A stretch of DNA of 35,479 nucleotides from a virus. The notes beneath the pieces are model-generated. The model was not told the origin of the DNA. It was given only the letters and a program-made list of their open reading frames with translations, and made no database searches. A program made the translations under genes and the position numbers. Location of the stretch: UHGV virus genome UHGV-0144289. The stretch is one strand, 5' to 3'. This document shows, one piece after another, positions 1,600-18,633 of the stretch (position 1 is the stretch's first letter; every line of letters starts with the position of its first letter).

Positions 1600-1828
1600 T
1601 AAAGATAGCTCCGAAGTCTGGTTCTTCCTCCCGCACCGTCTCTTCCTGCTGGTTGCGGTATTTAATCGGGTTCAGGAAATGGCCCCACGTCGTTTTAGGA
1701 TGGCCGTCTGCCCTTTCCATGAAAAAGACACCGGCCCGACGTAGCGCTTCACACTGCCTCGATTTAAGTGGGGTCCCCGTCAGTTCGATCATTTCCTCTC
1801 TGGTGATGATGTCGTGATCGTGTCTCAT
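1583..1828 (-). CDS. xis: Excisionase-like small DNA-binding protein
   Basis: 81-aa ORF directly upstream of and overlapping int by 17 nt; helix-turn-helix-like segment (REEMIELTGTPLKSRQCEALRRAG); start codon preceded by the GAGGAAAGACC start-associated motif. Confidence 0.5.
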   Translation of the reverse strand: MRHDHDIITREEMIELTGTPLKSRQCEALRRAGVFFMERADGHPKTTWGHFLNPIKYRNQQEETVREEEPDFGAIFNGRKT

Positions 1829-1988
1829 GGTCTTTCCTCAGCATGCCGGCTATCGCGTTGTCTGCCGTATCGCAAGCGCGTTGGATATCGGACTGGGTCA
1901 GAGTCCTCTTTCTAACGCTGGCTGATAGCCTGCCAATTTTGATATCGAAATCTGAAAGTAAAAGTGTGCCTGGTTGCCAACGTAGCAT
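1764..1988 (-). CDS. Hypothetical protein (doubtful ORF)
   Basis: 74-aa ORF overlapping the xis-like start by 65 nt; no recognisable domain; may be spurious or shorter. Confidence 0.2.
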   Translation of the reverse strand: MLRWQPGTLLLSDFDIKIGRLSASVRKRTLTQSDIQRACDTADNAIAGMLRKDHETRSRHHHQRGNDRTDGDPT

Positions 1989-2259: not shown

Positions 2260-2791
2260 GGTGAGCGCCCGGCACTGGGTTTAACAGTTCTTCCGGTATC
2301 TCTCCGCCGTCAGCGGTAATCTGGGCCGCCGCTGCCTGTGCTGATTCAATCGCTTCCTTGATGGCTTTCTTGTCCGGAGTGACTAACGTCTGAACTGTCA
2401 CTAATTCATCCGGCAGTAATTCATCATTATCGATCACGACGTTTATAGCTCCCTTACGTGCGGTAAAGGTATTTTTGGCGGTTTTAACCGTATCCTGACC
2501 GGCGGCCAGTAGACACTGGAGAACATATTTCTTCAGGTTCGTGATCTTACCTTCGAATGATTTTTTGCGGGCGGCAAGGCGTTTGGCCTCTTCATCGCAG
2601 GTTTTTGCCAGGCCTTCCAGATTGCGAACGTGGACGAAAACGGCATCCAGTTTATCGCCGAGTTGTAACTCAAGACCTTCCATTGTGTCGGCGATCATTT
2701 CAGGAGACAGACCAGCACCGTCTTCGTTTTCCAGTAGTGCCTGGAGTTTTGACATATCGGCTGCGATAGCAATTGCAGTGGTGGAAGTCAT
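2225..2791 (-). CDS. Siphovirus Gp157-family protein (commonly found next to phage recombinases)
   Basis: 188 aa; coiled-coil N-terminus and the pattern EEAKRLAARKKSFEGKITNLKKYVLQCL...TFTARKG...VIDNDELLPDEL, which resembles the Gp157 family as I recall it; immediately downstream of the annealing-protein gene. Confidence 0.5.
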   Translation of the reverse strand: MTSTTAIAIAADMSKLQALLENEDGAGLSPEMIADTMEGLELQLGDKLDAVFVHVRNLEGLAKTCDEEAKRLAARKKSFEGKITNLKKYVLQCLLAAGQDTVKTAKNTFTARKGAINVVIDNDELLPDELVTVQTLVTPDKKAIKEAIESAQAAAAQITADGGEIPEELLNPVPGAHLEIGERSLQVR

Positions 2792-4941
2792 TATGCTTTC
2801 TCCTCGGCTTTATTCAGTTCTTTAATGCGCCCATCTTTGATGGAGATGAGTCGGCGGAGCCGGCCAGACAGATAACGTTCATGCTGCGTGTCGCCGTTGG
2901 CCTGGGCGGCTTTAATGTGAACATCGATCTCACGTGCGATAGGGGAAAACACACCGTTGATTTCGTTCACCGTCACGCCATGCGCCAGGGTATTAGCAAC
3001 GCGGCTTAATTTATCGTCAAACTCCTGGCGGAGCCGTGCTGCATCTTCGGCTGATTCGCTGGCGTTCTTCAGGTCAAACTCGGCCTTGTTCTTCTGGCGG
3101 TACTCCAGATTGTCGTAAAGCCCCATAAAGATATCGCCACTGAATCCGAGGCCGGATAACGCTTTTTTGGTCGCATCTGTCAGTGATTTTTTGGCTGCTT
3201 CGCCGTCGCAGGTGATCCCGTATTTACTACCGTAAATGTAGGGTGTACAGCCGTATGCTGTTTCCTCACCTCGTACTCCGTTCAGGATGTACCAGAGCCG
3301 GACAGTCACAACATGGTGCTGTTCGTTGACGGTATTACCATTCCCATCAAGAACCAGCTCCCACGATGCGTTGTTGTCTTTGCCTTTTACCTGCCGAGTG
3401 ATCGGCGCGCCAATATCGAAACGCTCTTCAACAATATCCACGCCCCAGCCGATGCCCTTAGGGCCAAACTCACGTGTGGCAAGCATGGTCATGTAGGTAC
3501 CGTTGATCGAGGTGCCACCGCCGTTCTGTGTGAAAGCCTTAGTAAACCTTTCGTCGGTTTTAAATACGCGTTTCCAGAGGTCTAAATTGTCTTCCCCGAT
3601 AATTGGTTTTCCGACAGCCTGCACAACATCCTCAGCGTTAGGCAGGCTTTCAGCGTGAGCGATTTGTTTTGCTAAACGCTCGGAATCATCAGCCAGTTTT
3701 TCAGCCTTAACGCTTAACTTCTCTTCCGGCTCTGCACCTTCACCAGAGGCATATACGCCATAACCCATATCATTGAGCGTCTCACGCGCCTGTTTGGCCT
3801 GAGTGTCGGTTACAACCGGCTGCTGCGCTTCCACTTTTTCGCCCACGTTTGAGGCGGTATTTTGCGTCGCCTCTGGTTGTTTAACGGATCCTGTCTCGGT
3901 TTCCTCAAAGCGACCGTTGGCCGCCAGCCATGAATCGATATGGCGGCGCAGGCTGTCAGGGAAATGGTAGGTATCTTTCGCCGGTACGTTTTGTACCACG
4001 CCGAAGATGCTGGCACGGTCGTATTTGAGTATCTGCGGCGTGGTGTGCAGCGATGCTGACCAGCGTTTAAAATCTTCCCGGTCATCGGAAATCATCTTCT
4101 TAGCGTCCAGAAGGTTTCCGGATAGTACCGGCGCATCAGGCGCCAGCGGGAGAAGGGCGGTAGCGATCTCCTGATCCAGCGTTGCATAAGTGTGTTTATA
4201 CCCGCGCTTAGAAATTACCACGGGTGTTTTATCATCGGTGCTGGTGCTGAGAGCGGTATTTTTATATACGCCGGGGGCCAGTTCGTCGCGCTTGCCCGGA
4301 TTCTCAAGCCAGCGTTTAACGAACTGAGAGATAGCCGCTTTGCCCGGCGTCTGGTTTTCAAAGTGGGAGAAAATACCCTGAATAAGATTGTTCAGACCTT
4401 CCACATGCATGCTTTGAACCGGGAAGTTATTTTGCAGGGCGCACAGAACATTAAAGTTAAAGCGATCTTCCTCTTCAAATTCCCCATCGTGGTTTTTCAG
4501 ATTATCCAGATAATCCACAACCTGAGAATAAAGATGGCCATCAATCGCCGCGGTGCTAAAAAGCAGGACGGCAGCAAAGCGTTCATCAGGGGAAACGGTC
4601 ATCAGGTCGATCACTTCATCGTCGGCTGGTAAACCTGCACCACTTCCGGAAGCGCTATCCTGCGCAGTAGAAACCCATTTTTCACCGTCAAAAGTATGCT
4701 GCTGGGCGAATGACTCATCGAACTGGCCAACGGTCGGCAGCGGCTGGCCTTCAACGTGTTCCCACAGTTTCGGTTTGAAATAGTTGTCACCATTGGCCGG
4801 GTATGATTCCCAGAGTTTGCCGGTCATAATGCTTTCGGCCACTTTTTTGTTTGGCGCATCGATGGCGATCGCCAGCTGCACGGCGCCGCAGTCTTTAATC
4901 GCCGATTTCTTTGGCTCAAATGAGCCGTTGTAGATGGTCAT
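2791..4941 (-). CDS. Large recombination protein with a C-terminal Erf/Rad52-like single-strand annealing domain and a ~430-aa N-terminal region of unknown function
   Basis: 716 aa from the ATG at 4941 (preceded by GAGGAAAGACCA). The C-terminal third (YGCTPYIYGSKYGITCDGEAAKKSLTDATKKALSGLGFSGDIFMG) resembles the conserved core of Erf/Rad52-type annealing proteins. Position in the early-left operon fits a recombination function. Confidence 0.6.
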   Translation of the reverse strand: MTIYNGSFEPKKSAIKDCGAVQLAIAIDAPNKKVAESIMTGKLWESYPANGDNYFKPKLWEHVEGQPLPTVGQFDESFAQQHTFDGEKWVSTAQDSASGSGAGLPADDEVIDLMTVSPDERFAAVLLFSTAAIDGHLYSQVVDYLDNLKNHDGEFEEEDRFNFNVLCALQNNFPVQSMHVEGLNNLIQGIFSHFENQTPGKAAISQFVKRWLENPGKRDELAPGVYKNTALSTSTDDKTPVVISKRGYKHTYATLDQEIATALLPLAPDAPVLSGNLLDAKKMISDDREDFKRWSASLHTTPQILKYDRASIFGVVQNVPAKDTYHFPDSLRRHIDSWLAANGRFEETETGSVKQPEATQNTASNVGEKVEAQQPVVTDTQAKQARETLNDMGYGVYASGEGAEPEEKLSVKAEKLADDSERLAKQIAHAESLPNAEDVVQAVGKPIIGEDNLDLWKRVFKTDERFTKAFTQNGGGTSINGTYMTMLATREFGPKGIGWGVDIVEERFDIGAPITRQVKGKDNNASWELVLDGNGNTVNEQHHVVTVRLWYILNGVRGEETAYGCTPYIYGSKYGITCDGEAAKKSLTDATKKALSGLGFSGDIFMGLYDNLEYRQKNKAEFDLKNASESAEDAARLRQEFDDKLSRVANTLAHGVTVNEINGVFSPIAREIDVHIKAAQANGDTQHERYLSGRLRRLISIKDGRIKELNKAEEKA

Positions 4942-4985
4942 TGGTCTTTCCTCTTGGTTACTGGCGCAGGTCACGCGCCGGTTAA

Positions 4986-5309
4986 TTAAAACGGTACGTC
5001 GCTTTCTTCAATTGGAGAGTGATCGATGCACAGCAGCTGCTGAATCTGGTCTTCAATAACACCCAGCTCCTTCTTTGCTTCGGCAGAGATTTTCTCTTTC
5101 TTCGCACGAAGGGCATTAACCTGCATACCAATAATGTCGATTGGCTCTAAAGCTGGAATGGCAACCTCTACCGTTTTGGTAGTAACGAGGACATACAGAT
5201 CAGGGTATTGCTGTGACATGTCACAGGTGAATGAGTGATAAGACGTTGGTAGATATGGTTTGGTTGTGGCCATAACGTAAATAGTTACGGGGATGGTAAG
5301 CGCTTCCAT
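4986..5309 (-). CDS. Hypothetical protein, first gene of the leftward early operon
   Basis: 107-aa ORF with RBS AAGGAG 7 nt upstream of the ATG; no domain recognised. Confidence 0.6.
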   Translation of the reverse strand: MEALTIPVTIYVMATTKPYLPTSYHSFTCDMSQQYPDLYVLVTTKTVEVAIPALEPIDIIGMQVNALRAKKEKISAEAKKELGVIEDQIQQLLCIDHSPIEESDVPF

Positions 5310-5333
5310 AGCGACTCCTTGATGATATATACT

Positions 5334-5452
5334 CAGAGCCGATCAGCGGCTCTGTCGTTGGTCTTTCCTCGCTACAGGGTTGGTCCCCTGTAGCATTCTG
5401 GGCGGTTTGGTCACTGTCCCGGGTAAATTAGCCCACTTCGGTGGGCTTTTTT
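5334..5452 (+). ncRNA. Candidate small antisense RNA in the early-left leader (speculative)
   Basis: Possible extended -10 (TGATATATA, ~5323-5331), then two strong hairpins (5334-5354 and 5371-5394) and a textbook intrinsic terminator on the plus strand (AGCCCAC-TTCG-GTGGGCT plus six T, 5430-5452). No plus-strand gene exists here. Confidence 0.25.
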
Positions 5453-5527
5453 ACGCCTGAAGGTTGCCGGTCTTTCCCGGCTGTCAGGGTGGTCAGCCCC
5501 ATTGGTCTTTCCTCGTTACTGCGTGAA

Positions 5528-5560
5528 TGCTTTAAAAAAATGCCCGGGGCGCCCGGGCCA
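5528..5560 (-). terminator. Intrinsic terminator on the minus strand within the early-left leader
   Basis: On the minus strand: GC-rich hairpin GCCCGGGCGCCCCGGGC followed by TTTTTTT. Lies between the putative PL promoter and the first early-left gene, implying an antitermination requirement. Confidence 0.5.
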
Positions 5561-5748
5561 AGACTACACACAGCAATTCGTATTCGTTGCGGTCTTTCCC
5601 GCATGTCATCGTACTGTCGGCGACCCGAAGAATTCGCGCCCGTCTTTCCGGACTGTCAGAACTGTTTCTGAACAACTGCCGCGTGGTTAGTGCGTCTTTG
5701 ATGTGGTGAAGCATAACCAAAGGTATTTTTATTGGCAATGTTTTTTAC

Positions 5749-5760
5749 TAACAAAAGTTA
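5749..5760. promoter_or_regulatory. Operator-type site TAAC-AAAA-GTTA next to the putative leftward early promoter
   Basis: Same TAAC-N4-GTTA dyad as the two sites in the repressor/cro intergenic region. Confidence 0.45.
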
Positions 5761-5809: not shown

Positions 5810-6223
5810 TTATTTTTTTGGAGTGTTTTTTTTCTTTTTTACCAAAAGTAACTCATCAAACAATCGCTGGAATCCGTCAACTTTATCTTTCAACTCATTG
5901 ATATGTCTATCTTTTTCTGATTCAGGTAGAGAATCAAAAAGATCAAGCAGTAGCTTTTGGCGATCATCTAACCGAGGTAAAAGCTCTTCTGCCTTCAACG
6001 GTTCATCGCTATCGGTACCGTTAAGTAACCATGTCGGAGAGCAACGAAGAGCCTCAGCGAGAGAAAACAGATTTTGCCCTTTTGGGGTGTTAATACCTGC
6101 TTCCCACTTGTAAACGCTGACGCCAGATATGCCAACGGCATCGGCGAGCTGCTGTTGTGTCAAACCAAGCTCTTTCCGTCTCGATGTAATGCGATCGTTA
6201 AAGGTCAATTTTTTCATATCCAT
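5810..6223 (-). CDS. Prophage repressor, XRE-family helix-turn-helix protein with no recognisable autocleavage (peptidase S24-like) domain
   Basis: 137 aa; N-terminal HTH (LTQQQLADAVGISGVSVYKWEAG); divergent from the cro-like gene across an operator region; the C-terminal part is acidic/coiled-coil with a lysine tail and shows no LexA/cI-type catalytic signature. Confidence 0.8.
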   Translation of the reverse strand: MDMKKLTFNDRITSRRKELGLTQQQLADAVGISGVSVYKWEAGINTPKGQNLFSLAEALRCSPTWLLNGTDSDEPLKAEELLPRLDDRQKLLLDLFDSLPESEKDRHINELKDKVDGFQRLFDELLLVKKKKNTPKK

Positions 6224-6228
6224 AATAT

Positions 6229-6281
6229 AAGTTAACTTGACATAACTTTCGTTAGTATTTATGTTCCTAACTGACGTTAGG
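6229..6281. promoter_or_regulatory. Immunity switch region: rightward early promoter (-35 TTGACA 6237-6242, -10 TATGTT ~6260-6265) with two operator dyads TAAC-TTTC-GTTA (6243-6254) and TAAC-TGAC-GTTA (6268-6279)
   Basis: Dyads overlap the spacer and start region of the promoter that would drive the cro-like gene; the repressor gene starts divergently at 6223. Confidence 0.55.
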
Positions 6282-6291
6282 AGAGGAAACT

Positions 6292-6489
6292 ATGAAGACC
6301 GAAACTGTTATCAGATTTTTTGGAACTAAAACCGCTGTTGCGCGTGCATTAGGTATCTCTCAAGTCGCTGTAACCCGCTGGGGGACTGTTGTTCCTGAAA
6401 AGCGAGCTGCGCGACTTGAGCATGTAACCGCGGGCGCCTTGAAGTACGACCCTACTTTTTACGAAGAGCAAAACACGTCTAAAGCATAA
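6292..6489 (+). CDS. Cro-like / YdaS-like small HTH regulator
   Basis: 65 aa; HTH (TKTAVARALGISQVAVTRW); first gene of the rightward early operon, RBS AGGAGAGG. Confidence 0.7.
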   Translation: MKTETVIRFFGTKTAVARALGISQVAVTRWGTVVPEKRAARLEHVTAGALKYDPTFYEEQNTSKA

Positions 6490-6551: not shown

Positions 6552-6998
6552 GTGGAATACCTCGAAGAACTTAAACGAGAGATCTTTAACTGGGCAGCGG
6601 AAAGCGGGCAGGAGCTGGTTGCTATCGAGATAAGCCGCATGTGGTTTCGTCTTGGTGGTAATACCGGTTCGCTGAAGCTGCACCAGATCGAAGATGCAGA
6701 TGGAAACGCCGACTGGCGGGCAATCAACAACAACCGCCAACAAATTTTTCGTTGGTTGCGAGGCGAGACCAAAGCCGCGAGAGCCAAAACTCTGGCGCTG
6801 GTCAAAGCGATGGAAGCGGCGCTGCCGGCAGAACGTTACGCGCGCTTGGGTATGTCCACCCAGTATTTAATTTGTGTGGCCATTCGTGAGTTTGCCGCGG
6901 CGATTATCGCGTTATTACTCGACGCCAGAGACGGGCCGCAGCAAGTCGCCAGAGCATTGCAAGCTATGCGAGAAACACAGCGCCTGACCAGCGTTTAA
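6552..6998 (+). CDS. YdaT-like (CII-like) regulatory protein
   Basis: 148 aa, GTG start with RBS AGGAGA; position after the cro-like gene and the motif RWLRGETKAARAK are reminiscent of the Rac-prophage YdaT family (from memory). Confidence 0.45.
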   Translation: MEYLEELKREIFNWAAESGQELVAIEISRMWFRLGGNTGSLKLHQIEDADGNADWRAINNNRQQIFRWLRGETKAARAKTLALVKAMEAALPAERYARLGMSTQYLICVAIREFAAAIIALLLDARDGPQQVARALQAMRETQRLTSV

Positions 6999-7018
6999 CC
7001 TGTACCGAGGAAAGACCA

Positions 7019-7240
7019 ATGAGAACACAAGACCGCATCACCTGGCGGAACGGGTTTCGCCGGAACGGGGTACAAGTCCCGATGGAAGATATCGAATCGA
7101 TTTTCGAGGAACGTCGCGCTACTGCGCTGACAATCTGGGAACGCTACGAACTGCGCAAGGCAGACCTGCAGGAAGCGGGACTTACCCAGAAAGAATACGA
7201 AATCGCCTGCCGTCAGCTGGCTGACTCGCTGGGGATCTGA
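7019..7240 (+). CDS. Hypothetical small protein upstream of the replication genes
   Basis: 73 aa; ATG preceded by the GAGGAAAGACCA start-associated motif. Confidence 0.6.
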   Translation: MRTQDRITWRNGFRRNGVQVPMEDIESIFEERRATALTIWERYELRKADLQEAGLTQKEYEIACRQLADSLGI

Positions 7241-9620: not shown

Positions 9621-9658
9621 CCGCGCCTGACCAGCGCGATTTAACTGAGGAAAGACCA

Positions 9659-10327
9659 ATGACCACGAATTTAAATTACCCAAAACCAGTAAAACCGGAT
9701 GATGGCTGCAACTGGCTCCCCGTTATTCTCTGGCGCATGAATGCCGGTGCGCGCGCCCGTAGCCGTTCCGTGTTCGTAGCGGCGCCACGTCCGGCCCCTG
9801 TACCAGGCATCACCCCGCAAAAACCGATTAAGCGAGAAATTATCGCCCCTACGGTTTCCGGCCGCAGGCGTAAAACCCACATCGGCACCGTGATTTATTC
9901 CAGAGGTGAAAAAAGCGTTCGCCTTAGCGAAGGCGCGACTGTCTGGTCTGCTGGCTCAAATGAGCATTTCGATAAAAAAACGGGCCAGCGCGTCGGCAGT
10001 ATTGGTCGTCACCGTCTGGTGCTGGAGAGTATCCGCCCATTGCAGGCCAGCGACGCACAACAGGACGCCGGGAGCGTCACCGCGCAGCAACTGGTAGCCG
10101 TGATGAAAGGCAAAACGCTTTCTTACCAGGGCATTCTGGCATTAATCCAGAAGCACTATCCCGATTGTCAGGTGACGACTAAAGAACTTCACGATCGCGT
10201 GTTCGGCATGTTCATGTCGAATTACGTGGGTATCACCCGTCACGACGATATGCCGGTGGTTCACTTCACGCTTAACAGCGTCGATCCCCGTTATTACATC
10301 GAGTCAGCGAAGAACAAGAGGGCATAA
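9659..10327 (+). CDS. Hypothetical protein (no recognised domain)
   Basis: 222 aa; ATG preceded by GAGGAAAGACCA and a conserved upstream block GCGCCTGACCAGCG. Confidence 0.6.
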   Translation: MTTNLNYPKPVKPDDGCNWLPVILWRMNAGARARSRSVFVAAPRPAPVPGITPQKPIKREIIAPTVSGRRRKTHIGTVIYSRGEKSVRLSEGATVWSAGSNEHFDKKTGQRVGSIGRHRLVLESIRPLQASDAQQDAGSVTAQQLVAVMKGKTLSYQGILALIQKHYPDCQVTTKELHDRVFGMFMSNYVGITRHDDMPVVHFTLNSVDPRYYIESAKNKRA

Positions 10328-12568: not shown

Positions 12569-12658
12569 GAATTCAATCGGATATTTTGAGATTTATTGTT
12601 GATTTTTAACGATTCGTGCTCTTAAAAATTTGCGCTCACTGTCAGTTGGTAGTATATA

Positions 12659-18183: not shown

Positions 18184-18216
18184 CATGTCACGACAACCTA
18201 ACCAGAGGAAAGACCA

Positions 18217-18633
18217 ATGAGCGACAAAGATATCGAGCAGCAAATTCAGGCTAAAGGCTTAACCGCGCCGCGCGTTACGCCTGATCATATCGAGAGCGTT
18301 ATCAAAGAGTGCCATTATCTCAACGTCGGCGAAGCGGTTCAGGCGGGCTGGCCTGATAAGTCGGCAATGGACGATTGCAGCCCAGCGCTGAACCTGCTGA
18401 CGATTTGTGTTCTGGTGCTGCACAACGGCTTCACCGTCACGGGCGAAAGCGCCTGCGCCAGCCCGCAAAACTTCGACCCGGAGATCGGTCGCAAGATTGC
18501 CCGCGAGAATGCGGTTAACAAGATTTGGATGCTGGAAGGTTACCTGCTGAAACAAAAGCTCAGTGAGCAGTGTACCGATGAGCGCATGTGTGAAAACTGC
18601 TACTCCGGCCAGGGCGCCTGTAATAACAAGTAA
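18217..18633 (+). CDS. Hypothetical protein with Cys-rich C-terminus
   Basis: 138 aa; ATG preceded by GAGGAAAGACCA; C-terminal CTDERMCENCYSGQGACNNK. Confidence 0.55.
   Translation: MSDKDIEQQIQAKGLTAPRVTPDHIESVIKECHYLNVGEAVQAGWPDKSAMDDCSPALNLLTICVLVLHNGFTVTGESACASPQNFDPEIGRKIARENAVNKIWMLEGYLLKQKLSEQCTDERMCENCYSGQGACNNK

Follow-up and report, generated by a model that had tools for sequence, protein, structure and literature searches.

What occupies the approximately 390 bp that separate the leftward early promoter from the first early-left gene in the virus genome UHGV-0144289? A sequence-only reading of the 35,479-nucleotide stretch of DNA analysed here (the window) had taken this interval for a single structured leader of the leftward transcript, with an array of hairpins behind which the early-left genes would lie. 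The individual elements are present, with the GAAAGA hairpins, the repeats, the motif copies, the terminator and a 24-codon open reading frame (ORF) all found within a few bases of where they had been placed, and the region contains no protein gene, is conserved, and lies downstream of a repressor-controlled leftward promoter. The single leader itself is refuted, because a strand test on pair variants among relatives, based on whether a variant leaves a G-U pair or a mismatch, divides the features between two strands and rules out one structured RNA on the minus strand. The conservation set consisted of 54 sequences, the window and 53 relatives. We give an even chance to the reading that the 390 bp are a non-coding control module of a lambdoid prophage, made up of two convergent small-RNA units and a repeat-bearing spacer. 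Judged by sequence comparison, the predicted small-RNA pair is best read as one RNA that carries a copy of the processed 3' form of the Hfq-dependent host small RNA RprA and another that is IsrB-like.

Strand assignment of the hairpins

The three hairpins with GAAAGA loops each have a 5-bp stem. HP1 (GUCCG-GAAAGA-CGGGC, minus strand, 5638-5653) and HP2 (UGCGG-GAAAGA-CCGCA, minus strand, 5588-5603) are located in the 5' half of a predicted RNA from the leftward promoter (pL), and both fold on the minus strand. In HP1, one pair changes from C-G to U-A in three distinct relatives and another from U-G to C-G, with G-U pairs in the minus sense only, and in HP2 G-C becomes G-U at two positions, also in the minus sense. 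HP3 (GCCGG-GAAAGA-CCGGC, 5466-5481) is situated between two convergent terminators, and an HP3-type unit is found in one to three copies per relative. The sole variants of HP3, at nine loci, read as A-C on the minus strand and as G-U on the plus strand; they favor the latter, for which the decoy model described below has no explanation. The exact 8-mer GGAAAGAC is found at both HP1 and HP2 in 49/54 sequences, the exceptions being the distant L050-L053 group and L040, where it survives at a single one of these hairpins. Stems vary, as in the GCUCG/CGAGC variant of L070, while the 8-mer is invariant and the closing G-C pair constant. Direct repeats described as about 19 nt correspond to a pair of about 18 nt (5642-5659 and 5470-5487), identical at 16/18 positions.

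Three further minus-strand hairpins were recorded. A small hairpin between HP1 and HP2 (UCGG-GUCG-CCGA, 5617-5628) shows a compensatory U-A to G-C change in three relatives. The Class B hairpin (GGG-CUGACCA-CCC, 5487-5499) has, by eye, a constant loop and stems that differ among relatives (GAGC/GCUC, GGGC/GCCC), and its box is also seen by eye ahead of the gene cassettes at 6984 and 9627. The third (5334-5354) belongs to the 5' untranslated region of the first early-left gene, which encodes a 107-aa protein (Shine-Dalgarno AAGGAG at 5320-5315, AUG at 5309), and its variants give six G-U pairs in the minus sense and six mismatches in the plus sense.

Two hairpins behave in the opposite manner. 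The 9-bp-stem hairpin at 5371-5394 (hairpin C, loop UUGGUC) does exist, yet it folds on the plus strand and not in the leftward transcript to which it had been assigned: its cells comprise 203 Watson-Crick, 12 G-U and 4 mismatched pairs in the plus sense, compared to 203, 3 and 13 in the minus sense, with compensatory changes at 8/9 pairs. Hairpin 2 (plus strand, 5398-5422, loop UUUGGUCAC) has 184 Watson-Crick, 61 G-U and 5 mismatched cells in the plus sense versus 184, 0 and 66 in the minus sense, and compensatory changes at 5/10 pairs; it is read as plus-strand because its 61 G-U cells are mismatches on the minus strand. The covariation proposed as a check on the leader therefore upholds minus-sense pairing for HP1 and HP2 and places the 9-bp hairpin on the other strand.

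A predicted small RNA downstream of pL

A consensus scan identified the pL-like early-left promoter (TTGCCA-17-TATGCT, minus strand, 5710-5738) with 9/12 matches. An operator-like inverted repeat, TACTAACAAAAGTTA, lies at 5746-5760 and again in the pR region at 6243-6257, the two being 93% complementary and the latter copy sitting between the pR -35 and -10 elements; a second related copy at 5712-5723 agrees at 10/12 positions by eye. In relatives with different repressors and promoters, conservation starts approximately 6-10 bases past the -10 element, that is, at +1.

The terminator scan confirms that a strong intrinsic terminator lies between the leftward promoter and every early-left gene. 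The minus-strand terminator placed at 5528-5560 is borne out as a stem of seven G-C pairs with a 3-nt loop (5558-5542) followed by a U7 run (5541-5535), and its stems vary in a compensatory way among relatives. What was regarded as an internal terminator may instead be the 3' end of a discrete predicted RNA of about 170 nt (minus strand, 5535 to ~5704) that comprises HP1, HP2, an RprA-like core and the terminator, with a fold of -62.7 kcal/mol and a z-score of -2.9. Most short-form relatives have a unit of 171-178 nt, L051/L052 one of 131 nt, and relatives that carry an internal insert one of 424-498 nt. Early-left expression still requires read-through of the small-RNA terminator, and the model that we prefer gives no account of how.

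Lambda N/nut and HK022 put likewise have sites in the interval from pL to the early-left genes, where a terminator must be overcome. In a protein-dependent system of the N/nut type, HP1 and HP2 would act as boxB and bring a phage protein onto RNA polymerase, permitting read-through of 5558-5535. This would suit a strong terminator ahead of every early-left gene and 5-bp covarying stems that carry an invariant purine-rich GAAAGA loop, given that the boxB loop of lambda nutL is GAAGA, and a 73-aa protein of the pR operon (7019-7240) starts with MRTQDRITWRNGFRRNG and is arginine-rich. However, the loops are of six bases and not five, a hexamer that may or may not fold like the GNRA-like pentaloop of boxB, and the best boxA match (queries CGCUCUUA / UGCUCUUUAACA) is 6/8, CGCACUAA in the pL RNA, the 12-mer having at least four mismatches. 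The plus-strand pR operon offers start cassettes only, with no leader-like sequence or GAAAGA hairpin that could serve as a second site. No N-family match was obtained among the ORFs scanned, a part of those in the window (10 ORFs by Pfam, 10 by PHROGs and 5 by NCBIfam), nor for the 107-aa protein of the first downstream gene, which by eye is not arginine-rich. The suggested search for an arginine-rich N-like protein accordingly yielded none in the first gene downstream of pL and the 73-aa candidate in the pR operon. Furthermore, HP3 and additional copies are found past the terminator, the terminator and gene order persist in L050-L053 with no GAAAGA hairpin ahead of the terminator, and the same 8-mer occupies ribosome sites. 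With boxA at 6/8, no N match among the scanned ORFs and no second pR site, N/nut-like antitermination, one of the mechanisms first put forward, is quite unlikely.

The other proposed form, RNA-only antitermination similar to HK022 put, would have RNA polymerase modified in cis by the invariant first ~50 nt of the transcript, alone or together with the hairpins. The stretch immediately after pL and before the terminator is nearly invariant over its first 53 transcribed bases among 15 distinct aligned sequences, with one substitution (position 9, in the window itself), and the neighboring protein diverges by up to ~20% across the wider relative set. Against this, a second copy is missing after pR, the HK022 immunity region (20.0-31.5 kb) shows no similarity (E at least 2.1 throughout), and the predicted fold pairs the 5' segment of the pL RNA with the RprA core, another possible cause of the conservation of that segment. 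We consider the put-like reading highly improbable. Neither nut nor put is related in sequence to the region, and, the boxB-like loop aside, their defining features were not found in it.

The 3' block resembles processed RprA

The discrete small RNA under pL gains a second feature from the RF00034 covariance model, which locates the RprA core ACGAAUUGCUGUGUGUAGUCUU at 5560-5581 on the minus strand with 22/22 bases identical, at a score of 43.3 bits (E 3e-4) that is below the gathering score of 70; relatives score 37.6-56.2 bits, likewise below 70. In the Rfam alignment, HP2 aligns with the middle hairpin of RprA. The 3' module of 47 nt, AUUGCUGUGUGUAGUCUUUGCCC followed by terminator and U run, is present, with 22/22 bases that include an 18-mer (5577-5560) equal to the 5' end of processed RprA, and then U7. 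The final ~45 nt of the predicted pL RNA hence match the processed 3' form in both the 22 bases and the terminator. The RprA 5' stem-loop and central pairing region (nt ~30-62) are absent and are replaced by phage sequence and HP2, with AACGAAU/ACGAAUU all that is left. In RprA itself, the central region (nt 30-70) pairs with rpoS. It also pairs with narP, and the processed 47-nt form (RprAproc) has known regulatory activity, although its direct partner is not known (PMC9262595). Like RprAproc, the phage RNA has AUUGCUGUGUGUAGUCUU and then a G+C-rich terminator and U run, and identity begins exactly at E. coli RprA nt 60, where the last 47 nt start (PMC9262595). Unlike RprA, the phage copy lies under pL and not at a chromosomal locus, its 5' 120 nt are unrelated to RprA, nt 30-70 are replaced, and the scores, at 43-56 bits, stay short of the gathering score. 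Pairing with the rpoS leader arm is predicted at -33.0 kcal/mol, compared to -26.1 +/- 3.6 in shuffles, a gap too small to settle whether the two pair.

The RprA-like block was found in at least 120 viral contigs and 76 unrelated contexts. Capture of a whole host rprA gene was rejected, as none of 120 examined occurrences resembles nt 1-59 and the best local score was 14/59. An identity with AgvB was also rejected: the model of the conserved ~42-nt 3' region of AgvB/AsxR (RF02702) gives 17.7 bits against a gathering score of 56, and it has no match in phage LLS, which has the same RprA-like block. AgvB and AsxR are nevertheless similar in kind, being short Hfq-type RNAs of lambdoid prophages with conserved 3' and variable 5' portions, found as convergent pairs and acting as mimics or decoys (PMC4104026). 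They differ in that the RNA described here is under pL and not at a late moron site, and is proposed to partner with a phage RNA, not with a small RNA of the host. As with StxS (PMC7547250), the pL RNA would be a product of early termination of a phage operon transcript. Nothing relevant on RprA-like phage RNAs or on the motif strings turned up in the literature searched. A wider claim, part of a reading that we regard as doubtful, is that many enterobacterial phages may have taken up the RprAproc block as a portable small-RNA 3' module.

A predicted IsrB-like RNA on the plus strand

The plus-strand hairpins belong to a predicted antisense small RNA (5340-5453, its 5' end inferred) that resembles the Hfq-associated IsrB and was identified by RF01386 and by its fold. 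In the window the RF01386 score is 28.7 bits (E 0.002), compared to 33.1 in L050 and 35.0 in L009, the last being equal to the gathering score of 35, and the fold z-score is -7.3. In 25 distinct relatives, 98.1% of the cells of the plus-strand hairpins are paired and 13/19 pairs show compensatory changes; 0/500 shuffles reach the observed values, and slid controls are at most 50% paired. The RNA would end at a plus-strand intrinsic terminator found by the terminator scan, AGCCCACUUCGGUGGGCU followed by U6 (5430-5453), which aligns with the IsrB terminator. A candidate -10 hexamer (TATACT, plus strand, 5328-5333) is TATACT or TATAAT in 38/38 distinct sequences despite varying flanks, with extended -10 forms TGATATAAT in L050/L053 and TGATATACT in L051; a good -35 element is lacking.

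IsrB of the Salmonella Gifsy prophages has been detected by experiment as an RNA of 88/94 nt and is antisense to flanking genes beside sbcA (PMC2330248). The window RNA is similar in being antisense to early-left genes next to a RecE/SbcA-type exonuclease gene, as in Gifsy-1 and Gifsy-2: it has pL on one side and the 107-aa and exonuclease genes on the other, and Gifsy-2 isrB lies between STM1010 and sbcA. Likewise, a UUUGGUC-loop hairpin is followed by the terminator GCCCACUUCGGUGGGC, and L009 reaches the gathering score. The IsrB-family structure, with two UUGGUC-loop hairpins and a terminator, is antisense to the 5' leader of the early-left mRNA, an arrangement that recalls lambda OOP and P22 sar, which lie opposite an early transcript but have no sequence relation to it. 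Differences from IsrB include the window score (28.7 versus 35 bits), a different first hairpin, and a 5' extension of ~25 nt that contains an anti-cassette segment, the IsrB 5' end aligning ~25 nt downstream of the proposed plus-strand transcription start. In ~7 kb examined around isrB of Gifsy-2, GGAAAGAC does not occur, and no IsrB target is named in the IsrB literature searched.

A start-associated cassette and its complement

The sequence GGTCTTTCC is found nine times in the window, all in the sense of local transcription, compared to an expectation of 0.27 +/- 0.47; 0/100 shuffles reach nine, and chance is therefore excluded. GGAAAGACC is the core of a conserved cassette, with the formula CCUGACCAGCG-N13-GAGGAAAGACC-N1-5-AUG, ahead of five phage genes. 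Motif scanning placed it at the start of the exonuclease gene (minus strand, 4939-4953) and at 1826-1839 (minus), 7007-7021, 9647-9661 and 18205-18219 (all plus). Homologous genes retain the cassette even in relatives whose proteins are only 50% identical, and three of the five genes have a CUGACC(A/U)GCG box upstream. Complementarity to 16S rRNA beyond the Shine-Dalgarno was tried and rejected, since comparison with the 16S sequence gave only a chance-level 7-mer.

The GAGGAAAGACC copies reported at 5358-5371 and 5500-5514 are also genuine. At 5500-5514 (minus strand), GAGGAAAGACCAAUG matches the cassettes at 4939, 9647 and 18205 at 15/15 positions, heads the 24-codon ORF, and read on the plus strand is a perfect anti-cassette 15-mer, whereas the copy at 5358-5378 is identical to the cassette of gene 7019 at 20/21 positions. 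Throughout the window, matches of at least 13 nt to the leader are confined to cassettes. The suggestion that the repeats share a core with the start-associated sequence holds, as the hairpin loops contain the same 8-mer, although without the Shine-Dalgarno (GAGG). The 24-codon ORF (ATG 5502 to 5428) is present in the window, but in many relatives its start is ACG, AAG or GTG and the HP3 frame differs; a coding role for it and for the ORF that follows the proximal cassette copy was rejected, because they lose their starts or shift frame in relatives. The 107-aa protein has no solved relative and no family of known function, and a protein search of genome contigs found no match to it. A DNA pattern scan of species representatives detected only Citrobacter murliniae and Raoultella lignicola.

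On the plus strand, the predicted IsrB-like RNA contains the exact complement of GGAAAGACC within an anti-cassette segment, CGUUGGUCUUUCCUCG (5356-5371), recognized by conservation and complementarity. Its UUGGUCUUUCCU is invariant in 25 distinct relatives, a conservation that is inseparable from that of the cassette copy on the opposite strand. The segment is complementary, perfectly or nearly so, over 13-21 nt to the ribosome sites 4941, 6999-7019, 9647 and 18205, and over 12 nt to ribosome site 1828; UUGGUCUUUCC is the part presumed to contact the cassette genes. When the plus-strand seed was scanned across the window by loop-tolerant duplex energy, the cassette sites did not stand out from background; the scan is uninformative because such energies swamp perfect matches of 13-21 nt.

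The cassette has a counterpart in the start-associated sequences of cluster K mycobacteriophages (SAS/ESAS), a short invariant motif that precedes some of the start codons by 1-8 nt, in a single orientation, often with a second conserved upstream element of inverted-repeat character, for which function was left open (PMC3203893). Here too, the motif lies shortly before a subset of starts, in one orientation and with an upstream partner, a functional resemblance without sequence homology. The phage cassette differs by its unrelated sequence and host, and in having extra copies in a non-coding leader, some of them in loops, next to a complementary RNA. The cluster K precedent, whose factor is not known (PMC3203893), would equally serve a translational operator, in which a phage or host RNA-binding protein reads GGAAAGAC at the cassette ribosome sites and is buffered by the leader copies. 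The same invariant 8-mer in unstructured ribosome sites and in loops of varied stems, and the loss of the GAGG Shine-Dalgarno from the hairpin copies, are consistent with such an operator. However, there is no candidate protein, and a complementary RNA encoded within the module is a simpler partner. CsrA-type sites have a consensus with GGA in the loop, and by eye the hairpins are unlike it; a CsrA sponge was rejected as a poor fit on this comparison. We regard the translational operator as unlikely.

A non-regulatory origin was also considered, in which the cassette is a gene-boundary linker for gain and loss of small genes and the leader copies are non-functional remnants of recombination. 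The one to three units among relatives, the appearance of L035, as if two copies had lost what lay between them, the insertion between HP1 and HP2 of L070 of a 48-aa ORF whose ribosome site is cassette-like, and the 20/21 match of the 5358-5378 copy to the cassette of gene 7019 are all in keeping with this. Arguing against it, start codons decay but the 8-mer is the same in every copy, stem pairing is maintained by compensatory changes, and HP1 and HP2 are found in 49/54 sequences, so we judge it unlikely. The number of decoy hairpins, which ranges from zero to five among relatives, fits relics as well as dosage tuning.

A possible RNA circuit

Our preferred mechanism, drawn from complementarity and conservation, is that the plus-strand RNA may be an antisense repressor of the cassette genes that is titrated by decoys on the pL RNA. 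If made from the TATACT hexamer, it would carry UUGGUCUUUCCUC near its 5' end, and in the proposed pairing GUCUUUCC would be the antisense counterpart of GGAAAGAC. In the lysogen, the plus-strand RNA would keep the cassette genes silent. After induction, abundant pL RNA and its read-through product would display five cassette-like copies, three of them in hairpin loops lacking the GAGG Shine-Dalgarno, that could titrate the antisense RNA or some other 8-mer-binding factor. Cleavage by RNase E at the RprA site could then release an RprA-like 3' fragment acting on host targets, and the early-left genes would be expressed solely via read-through of the small-RNA terminator. The repeated ribosome-site motif copies of the phage may thus be RNA decoys, and titration of a factor common to loops and start sites is a live idea because the loops share the 8-mer with the start-associated sequence. 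Pairing of the plus-strand RNA to HP1 would involve only 8 bp and need an opened closing base pair, and the 8-mer never varies, which makes a covariation test of the pairing model impossible.

In its fullest form the proposal is a three-tier circuit within 400 bp, in which a cassette marks genes, an IsrB-family small RNA of the lysogen blocks all of them via one seed, and a pL sponge releases them and delivers an RprA mimic, the RprAproc block being widely adopted by enterobacterial phages. We advance this as doubtful but possible.

The locus illustrates that a hairpin array between a promoter and a gene can be split over opposite strands, and corrects a tempting misreading. The cassette, together with an antisense RNA encoded beside it, provides a testable partner for a start-associated motif. 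Occurrence of the RprA-like block in so many contigs and contexts suggests a common phage route into host Hfq networks, undescribed in the literature searched. If the anatomy holds, the first RNA of this phage family after induction would be a regulatory RNA and not an mRNA leader.

Organization of the early-left region

The window is a lambdoid-type siphovirus prophage in which tRNA genes (151-449) are followed by a leftward integrase gene (583-1599), genes for a DUF4224 and a Gp157 protein, and leftward genes for a 716-aa exonuclease (2791-4941), a 107-aa protein of unknown function (4986-5309) and a cI-like HTH repressor (5810-6223). A P22-Cro-like protein is encoded on the plus strand (6292-6489), and to its right are genes designated YdaT-like, RepO-like and DnaB-like after the annotation of relatives. 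Of deposited sequences, the closest are the phages that bear the name Stenotrophomonas phage BUCT708/709, along with a few E. coli prophages; the 107-aa gene is also present in 49 IMG/VR contigs, and of the species-representative genomes, those of Citrobacter murliniae and Raoultella lignicola carry the leader. In all annotated relatives 525-930 bp separate the repressor gene from the 107-aa gene, a stretch that lacks annotation in three records and carries one 37-aa hypothetical call in BUCT708. The sequence-only reading had described the ~390 bp upstream of the 107-aa gene (~5310-5700) as one structured early-left leader pointing to antitermination or regulator titration. All of the elements it listed are found in the sequence and its observation is confirmed; its interpretation is partly supported, and the anatomy is very probably that of two convergent RNA units.

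The predicted leftward RNA

The pL-like leftward promoter (TTGCCA-17-TATGCT, 5738-5710, minus strand) has operator-like repeats on either side, and these are found again at pR, between its -35 and -10 elements. Relatives differ in repressor, operator and promoter, and near-identity begins ~6-10 bases after the -10 element, a conservation boundary that places the transcription start near 5703. Approximately 170 nt downstream is a strong intrinsic terminator of seven G-C pairs and a U7 run (5558-5535, minus strand). For most short-form relatives the predicted pL RNA unit has a length of 171-178 nt; in L051 and L052 it is 131 nt, and in relatives with an insert between the second hairpin, HP2, and the 3' part it is 424-498 nt. 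Variants of HP1 (5653-5638) and HP2 (5603-5588), both with GAAAGA loops, are G-U or compensatory only when read in the minus sense, indicating that these hairpins belong to the leftward RNA.

The 3' part of the pL RNA is almost certainly homologous to the 3' block of RprA. Against the Rfam RprA model the window scores 43.3 bits (E 3e-4) and seven relatives score 37.6-56.2 bits; each of these matches falls under the gathering score of 70 yet spans the full model. HP2 is aligned to the middle hairpin of RprA, and 22 consecutive identical bases, ACGAAUUGCUGUGUGUAGUCUU, are followed by the terminator. In E. coli K-12 the 18-mer AUUGCUGUGUGUAGUCUU starts at nucleotide 60 of the 106-nt RprA, which is the first base of its last 47 nt; these constitute RprAproc, the processed and still active form (PMC9262595). 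Between HP2 and the RprA-like core, long-leader relatives (L001 4538-4725, L008, L009, L037 and others) have a G+C-rich insert of ~255 nt, the 3' part of which aligns with the RprA 5' hairpin, raising the score to 50 bits, and the remainder of which is without an Rfam match. In the predicted fold (5533-5704, minus strand) a 12-bp helix joins the invariant 5' segment CACGCGGCAGUU to the RprA-like core AAUUGCUGUGUG, and in L050 the same helix is possible with a different 5' sequence; as modeled, this helix may mask the core until the pL RNA is processed.

At least 120 IMG/VR contigs contain an exact match to the 18-mer, ATTGCTGTGTGTAGTCTT, which together with a terminator makes up the processed-RprA block seen in the IMG/VR loci L059-L178 and in Escherichia phage LLS (L058 1500-1565). 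Among the 18-mer matches listed there are 76 distinct upstream contexts, in which conservation is at most 0.5 bit per position right up to the block and begins exactly at its first base; a hairpin and T run follow the 18-mer in 68 of these 76, and none resembles rprA nucleotides 1-59. Only 26 of the 119 listed matches are accounted for by the phage family bearing the start-associated cassette, most lying outside it. In phage LLS the block closes a non-coding stretch of ~360 nt that separates the repressor gene from the first of the early-left genes. In some other contigs it lies, by eye, ~370-470 nt downstream of a gene for a product like a cI/LexA-type repressor, and in others directly after a stop codon. 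Such a conserved block behind unrelated upstream contexts suggests a portable 3' module of phage RNAs, of which we found no description in the searchable literature. Precedents exist for convergent pairs of prophage sRNAs whose 3' part is conserved and 5' part variable (PMC4104026), and for an sRNA arising from early termination of a phage operon (PMC7547250). CACAAC(A/C), reported as the GcvB-target motif of the anti-sRNA AgvB (PMC4104026), precedes several RprA-like blocks (L067, L118, L162; L058 1500-1520), and the AgvB model has no match to these loci.

The predicted rightward RNA

On the plus strand, 5367-5451 matches the Rfam isrB model with 28.7 bits (E 0.002; gathering score 35), and relatives score 33.1 (L050) and 35.0 bits (L009). 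We aligned 25 distinct relatives and counted pairs on both strands. Hairpin 5371-5394 gave 203 Watson-Crick, 12 G-U and 4 mismatched pairs on the plus strand against 203, 3 and 13 on the minus, and hairpin 5398-5422 gave 184, 61 and 5 against 184, 0 and 66. Overall, 98.1% of plus-strand cells are paired, with compensatory changes in 13 of 19 pairs; none of 500 shuffles reached these values, and in slid controls no more than 50% of cells pair. With a plus-strand terminator at 5430-5453, these counts move the 9-bp hairpin (5371-5394), formerly assigned to the leftward leader, to an antisense RNA, and the existence of the plus-strand structure is highly likely. At hairpin 5334-5354, beside the ribosome site of the 107-aa gene, the minus strand is favored. 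A TATACT/TATAAT hexamer (5328-5333), invariant in 38 distinct sequences with variable flanks and set within TGATATAAT or TGATATACT in distant relatives, would start the RNA near 5340; because it has no good -35 element, we infer this 5' end.

IsrB is an 88/94-nt RNA of Gifsy-1 and Gifsy-2 that is antisense to flanking genes, adjoins sbcA, and was detected in Salmonella lysogens, where it is strongly induced by starvation (PMC2330248). The Gifsy-2 isrB locus has the same layout as the window's. The Gifsy-2 early-left leader (L054 4180-4260, minus strand), L050 (2620-2680) and L053 share a GUUCCGC-GGCCGG-CGAUA-GGCAAA segment, which in the distant relatives L050 and L053 sits where HP1 would be.

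Start cassettes and GAAAGA hairpins

GGTCTTTCC occurs nine times in the window against 0.27 expected, a count reached in 0 of 100 shuffles. Five of these form start-associated cassettes, GAGGAAAGACC(A)AUG: on the minus strand before the genes at 1828 and 4941, and on the plus strand before those at 7019, 9659 and 18217. Within the region itself the motif is found four times exactly and once as the variant GGAAAGACG, each time in the leftward sense. A box, CCUGACC(A/U)GCG, lies ~13 nt upstream of three of the five gene cassettes, and box and cassette are kept at homologous genes even where the relatives' 107-aa protein is only 50% identical. Across loci the stems of the GAAAGA hairpins come in at least six versions (GUCCG, GUCUG, UGCGG, GCCGG, CCCGG, GCUCG) with a constant loop and a constant G-C closing pair, which leaves the 8-mer GGAAAGAC as the invariant unit. 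It is common to hairpins and gene starts, bearing out the earlier suggestion of a shared core; the GAGG Shine-Dalgarno is lost from the hairpin copies.

The spacer between the two convergent terminators (5454-5534) consists of one unit of a cassette copy, a CUGACCA-loop hairpin and a third GAAAGA hairpin, HP3 (5481-5466), variants of which are few and A-C in the minus sense. Relatives have one to three units, the sequence of some relatives suggesting a deletion between copies, and the 24-codon ORF from the spacer cassette copy is not conserved in them. L070 carries a 48-aa ORF (MTKKNMTDML...) with a cassette-like ribosome site inserted between HP1 and HP2, and an extra hairpin, GCUCG-GAAAGA-CGAGC, after HP2.

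Antitermination and a proposed antisense control

As the sequence-only reading had it, a terminator (5558-5535) stands before all of the early-left genes, so their expression requires read-through. Its proposal of N/nut-like antitermination fits poorly: the best boxA match is 6/8, the loops are six bases long, the pR operon has no site, and in L050-L053 gene order and terminator are retained with no GAAAGA hairpin preceding the terminator. The search for an arginine-rich N-like protein returned no N-like family match among the ORFs scanned; one lead is the 73-aa cassette gene (7019-7240, plus strand; phrog_2465, function unknown), whose product, with its arginine-rich N-terminus MRTQDRITWRNGFRRNG and own start cassette, is by sequence a candidate RNA-binding protein. 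Protein-independent, put-like antitermination likewise fails: pR lacks a copy, and comparison with HK022 showed no similarity. On the rightward strand the 12-mer closest to boxA, TGCTCTTAAAAA (12617-12628, two mismatches), is located between a 112-aa regulator gene and ninB.

The plus-strand RNA holds the exact complement of the 8-mer, and UUGGUCUUUCCU is invariant in 25 of 25 relatives. Within the window, matches of at least 13 nt to this anti-cassette segment are confined to the cassettes at 4941, 6999-7019 (20/21), 9647 and 18205, and the cassette at 1828 has a 12-nt match; every match is oriented to permit pairing of the plus-strand RNA with mRNA. Both the cassette's GACCAA and the upstream box's UGACCA have complements in the loops of the plus-strand RNA, UUGGUC and UUUGGUCAC. 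The role proposed for the IsrB-like RNA is repression, of the cassette genes and also, in cis, of the early-left leader; after induction, decoys would be supplied by the pL RNA and its read-through product. Drawn from complementarity, this scheme is tentative and less likely than not. Three observations limit it: the 8-mer never varies, which gives covariation no purchase on the pairing; an energy scan did not set cassette sites apart from background; and decoy hairpins number from 0 to 5 among relatives. The region is a variant of prophage Hfq-type sRNAs and start-associated motifs, with a fairly unusual circuit hypothesis.
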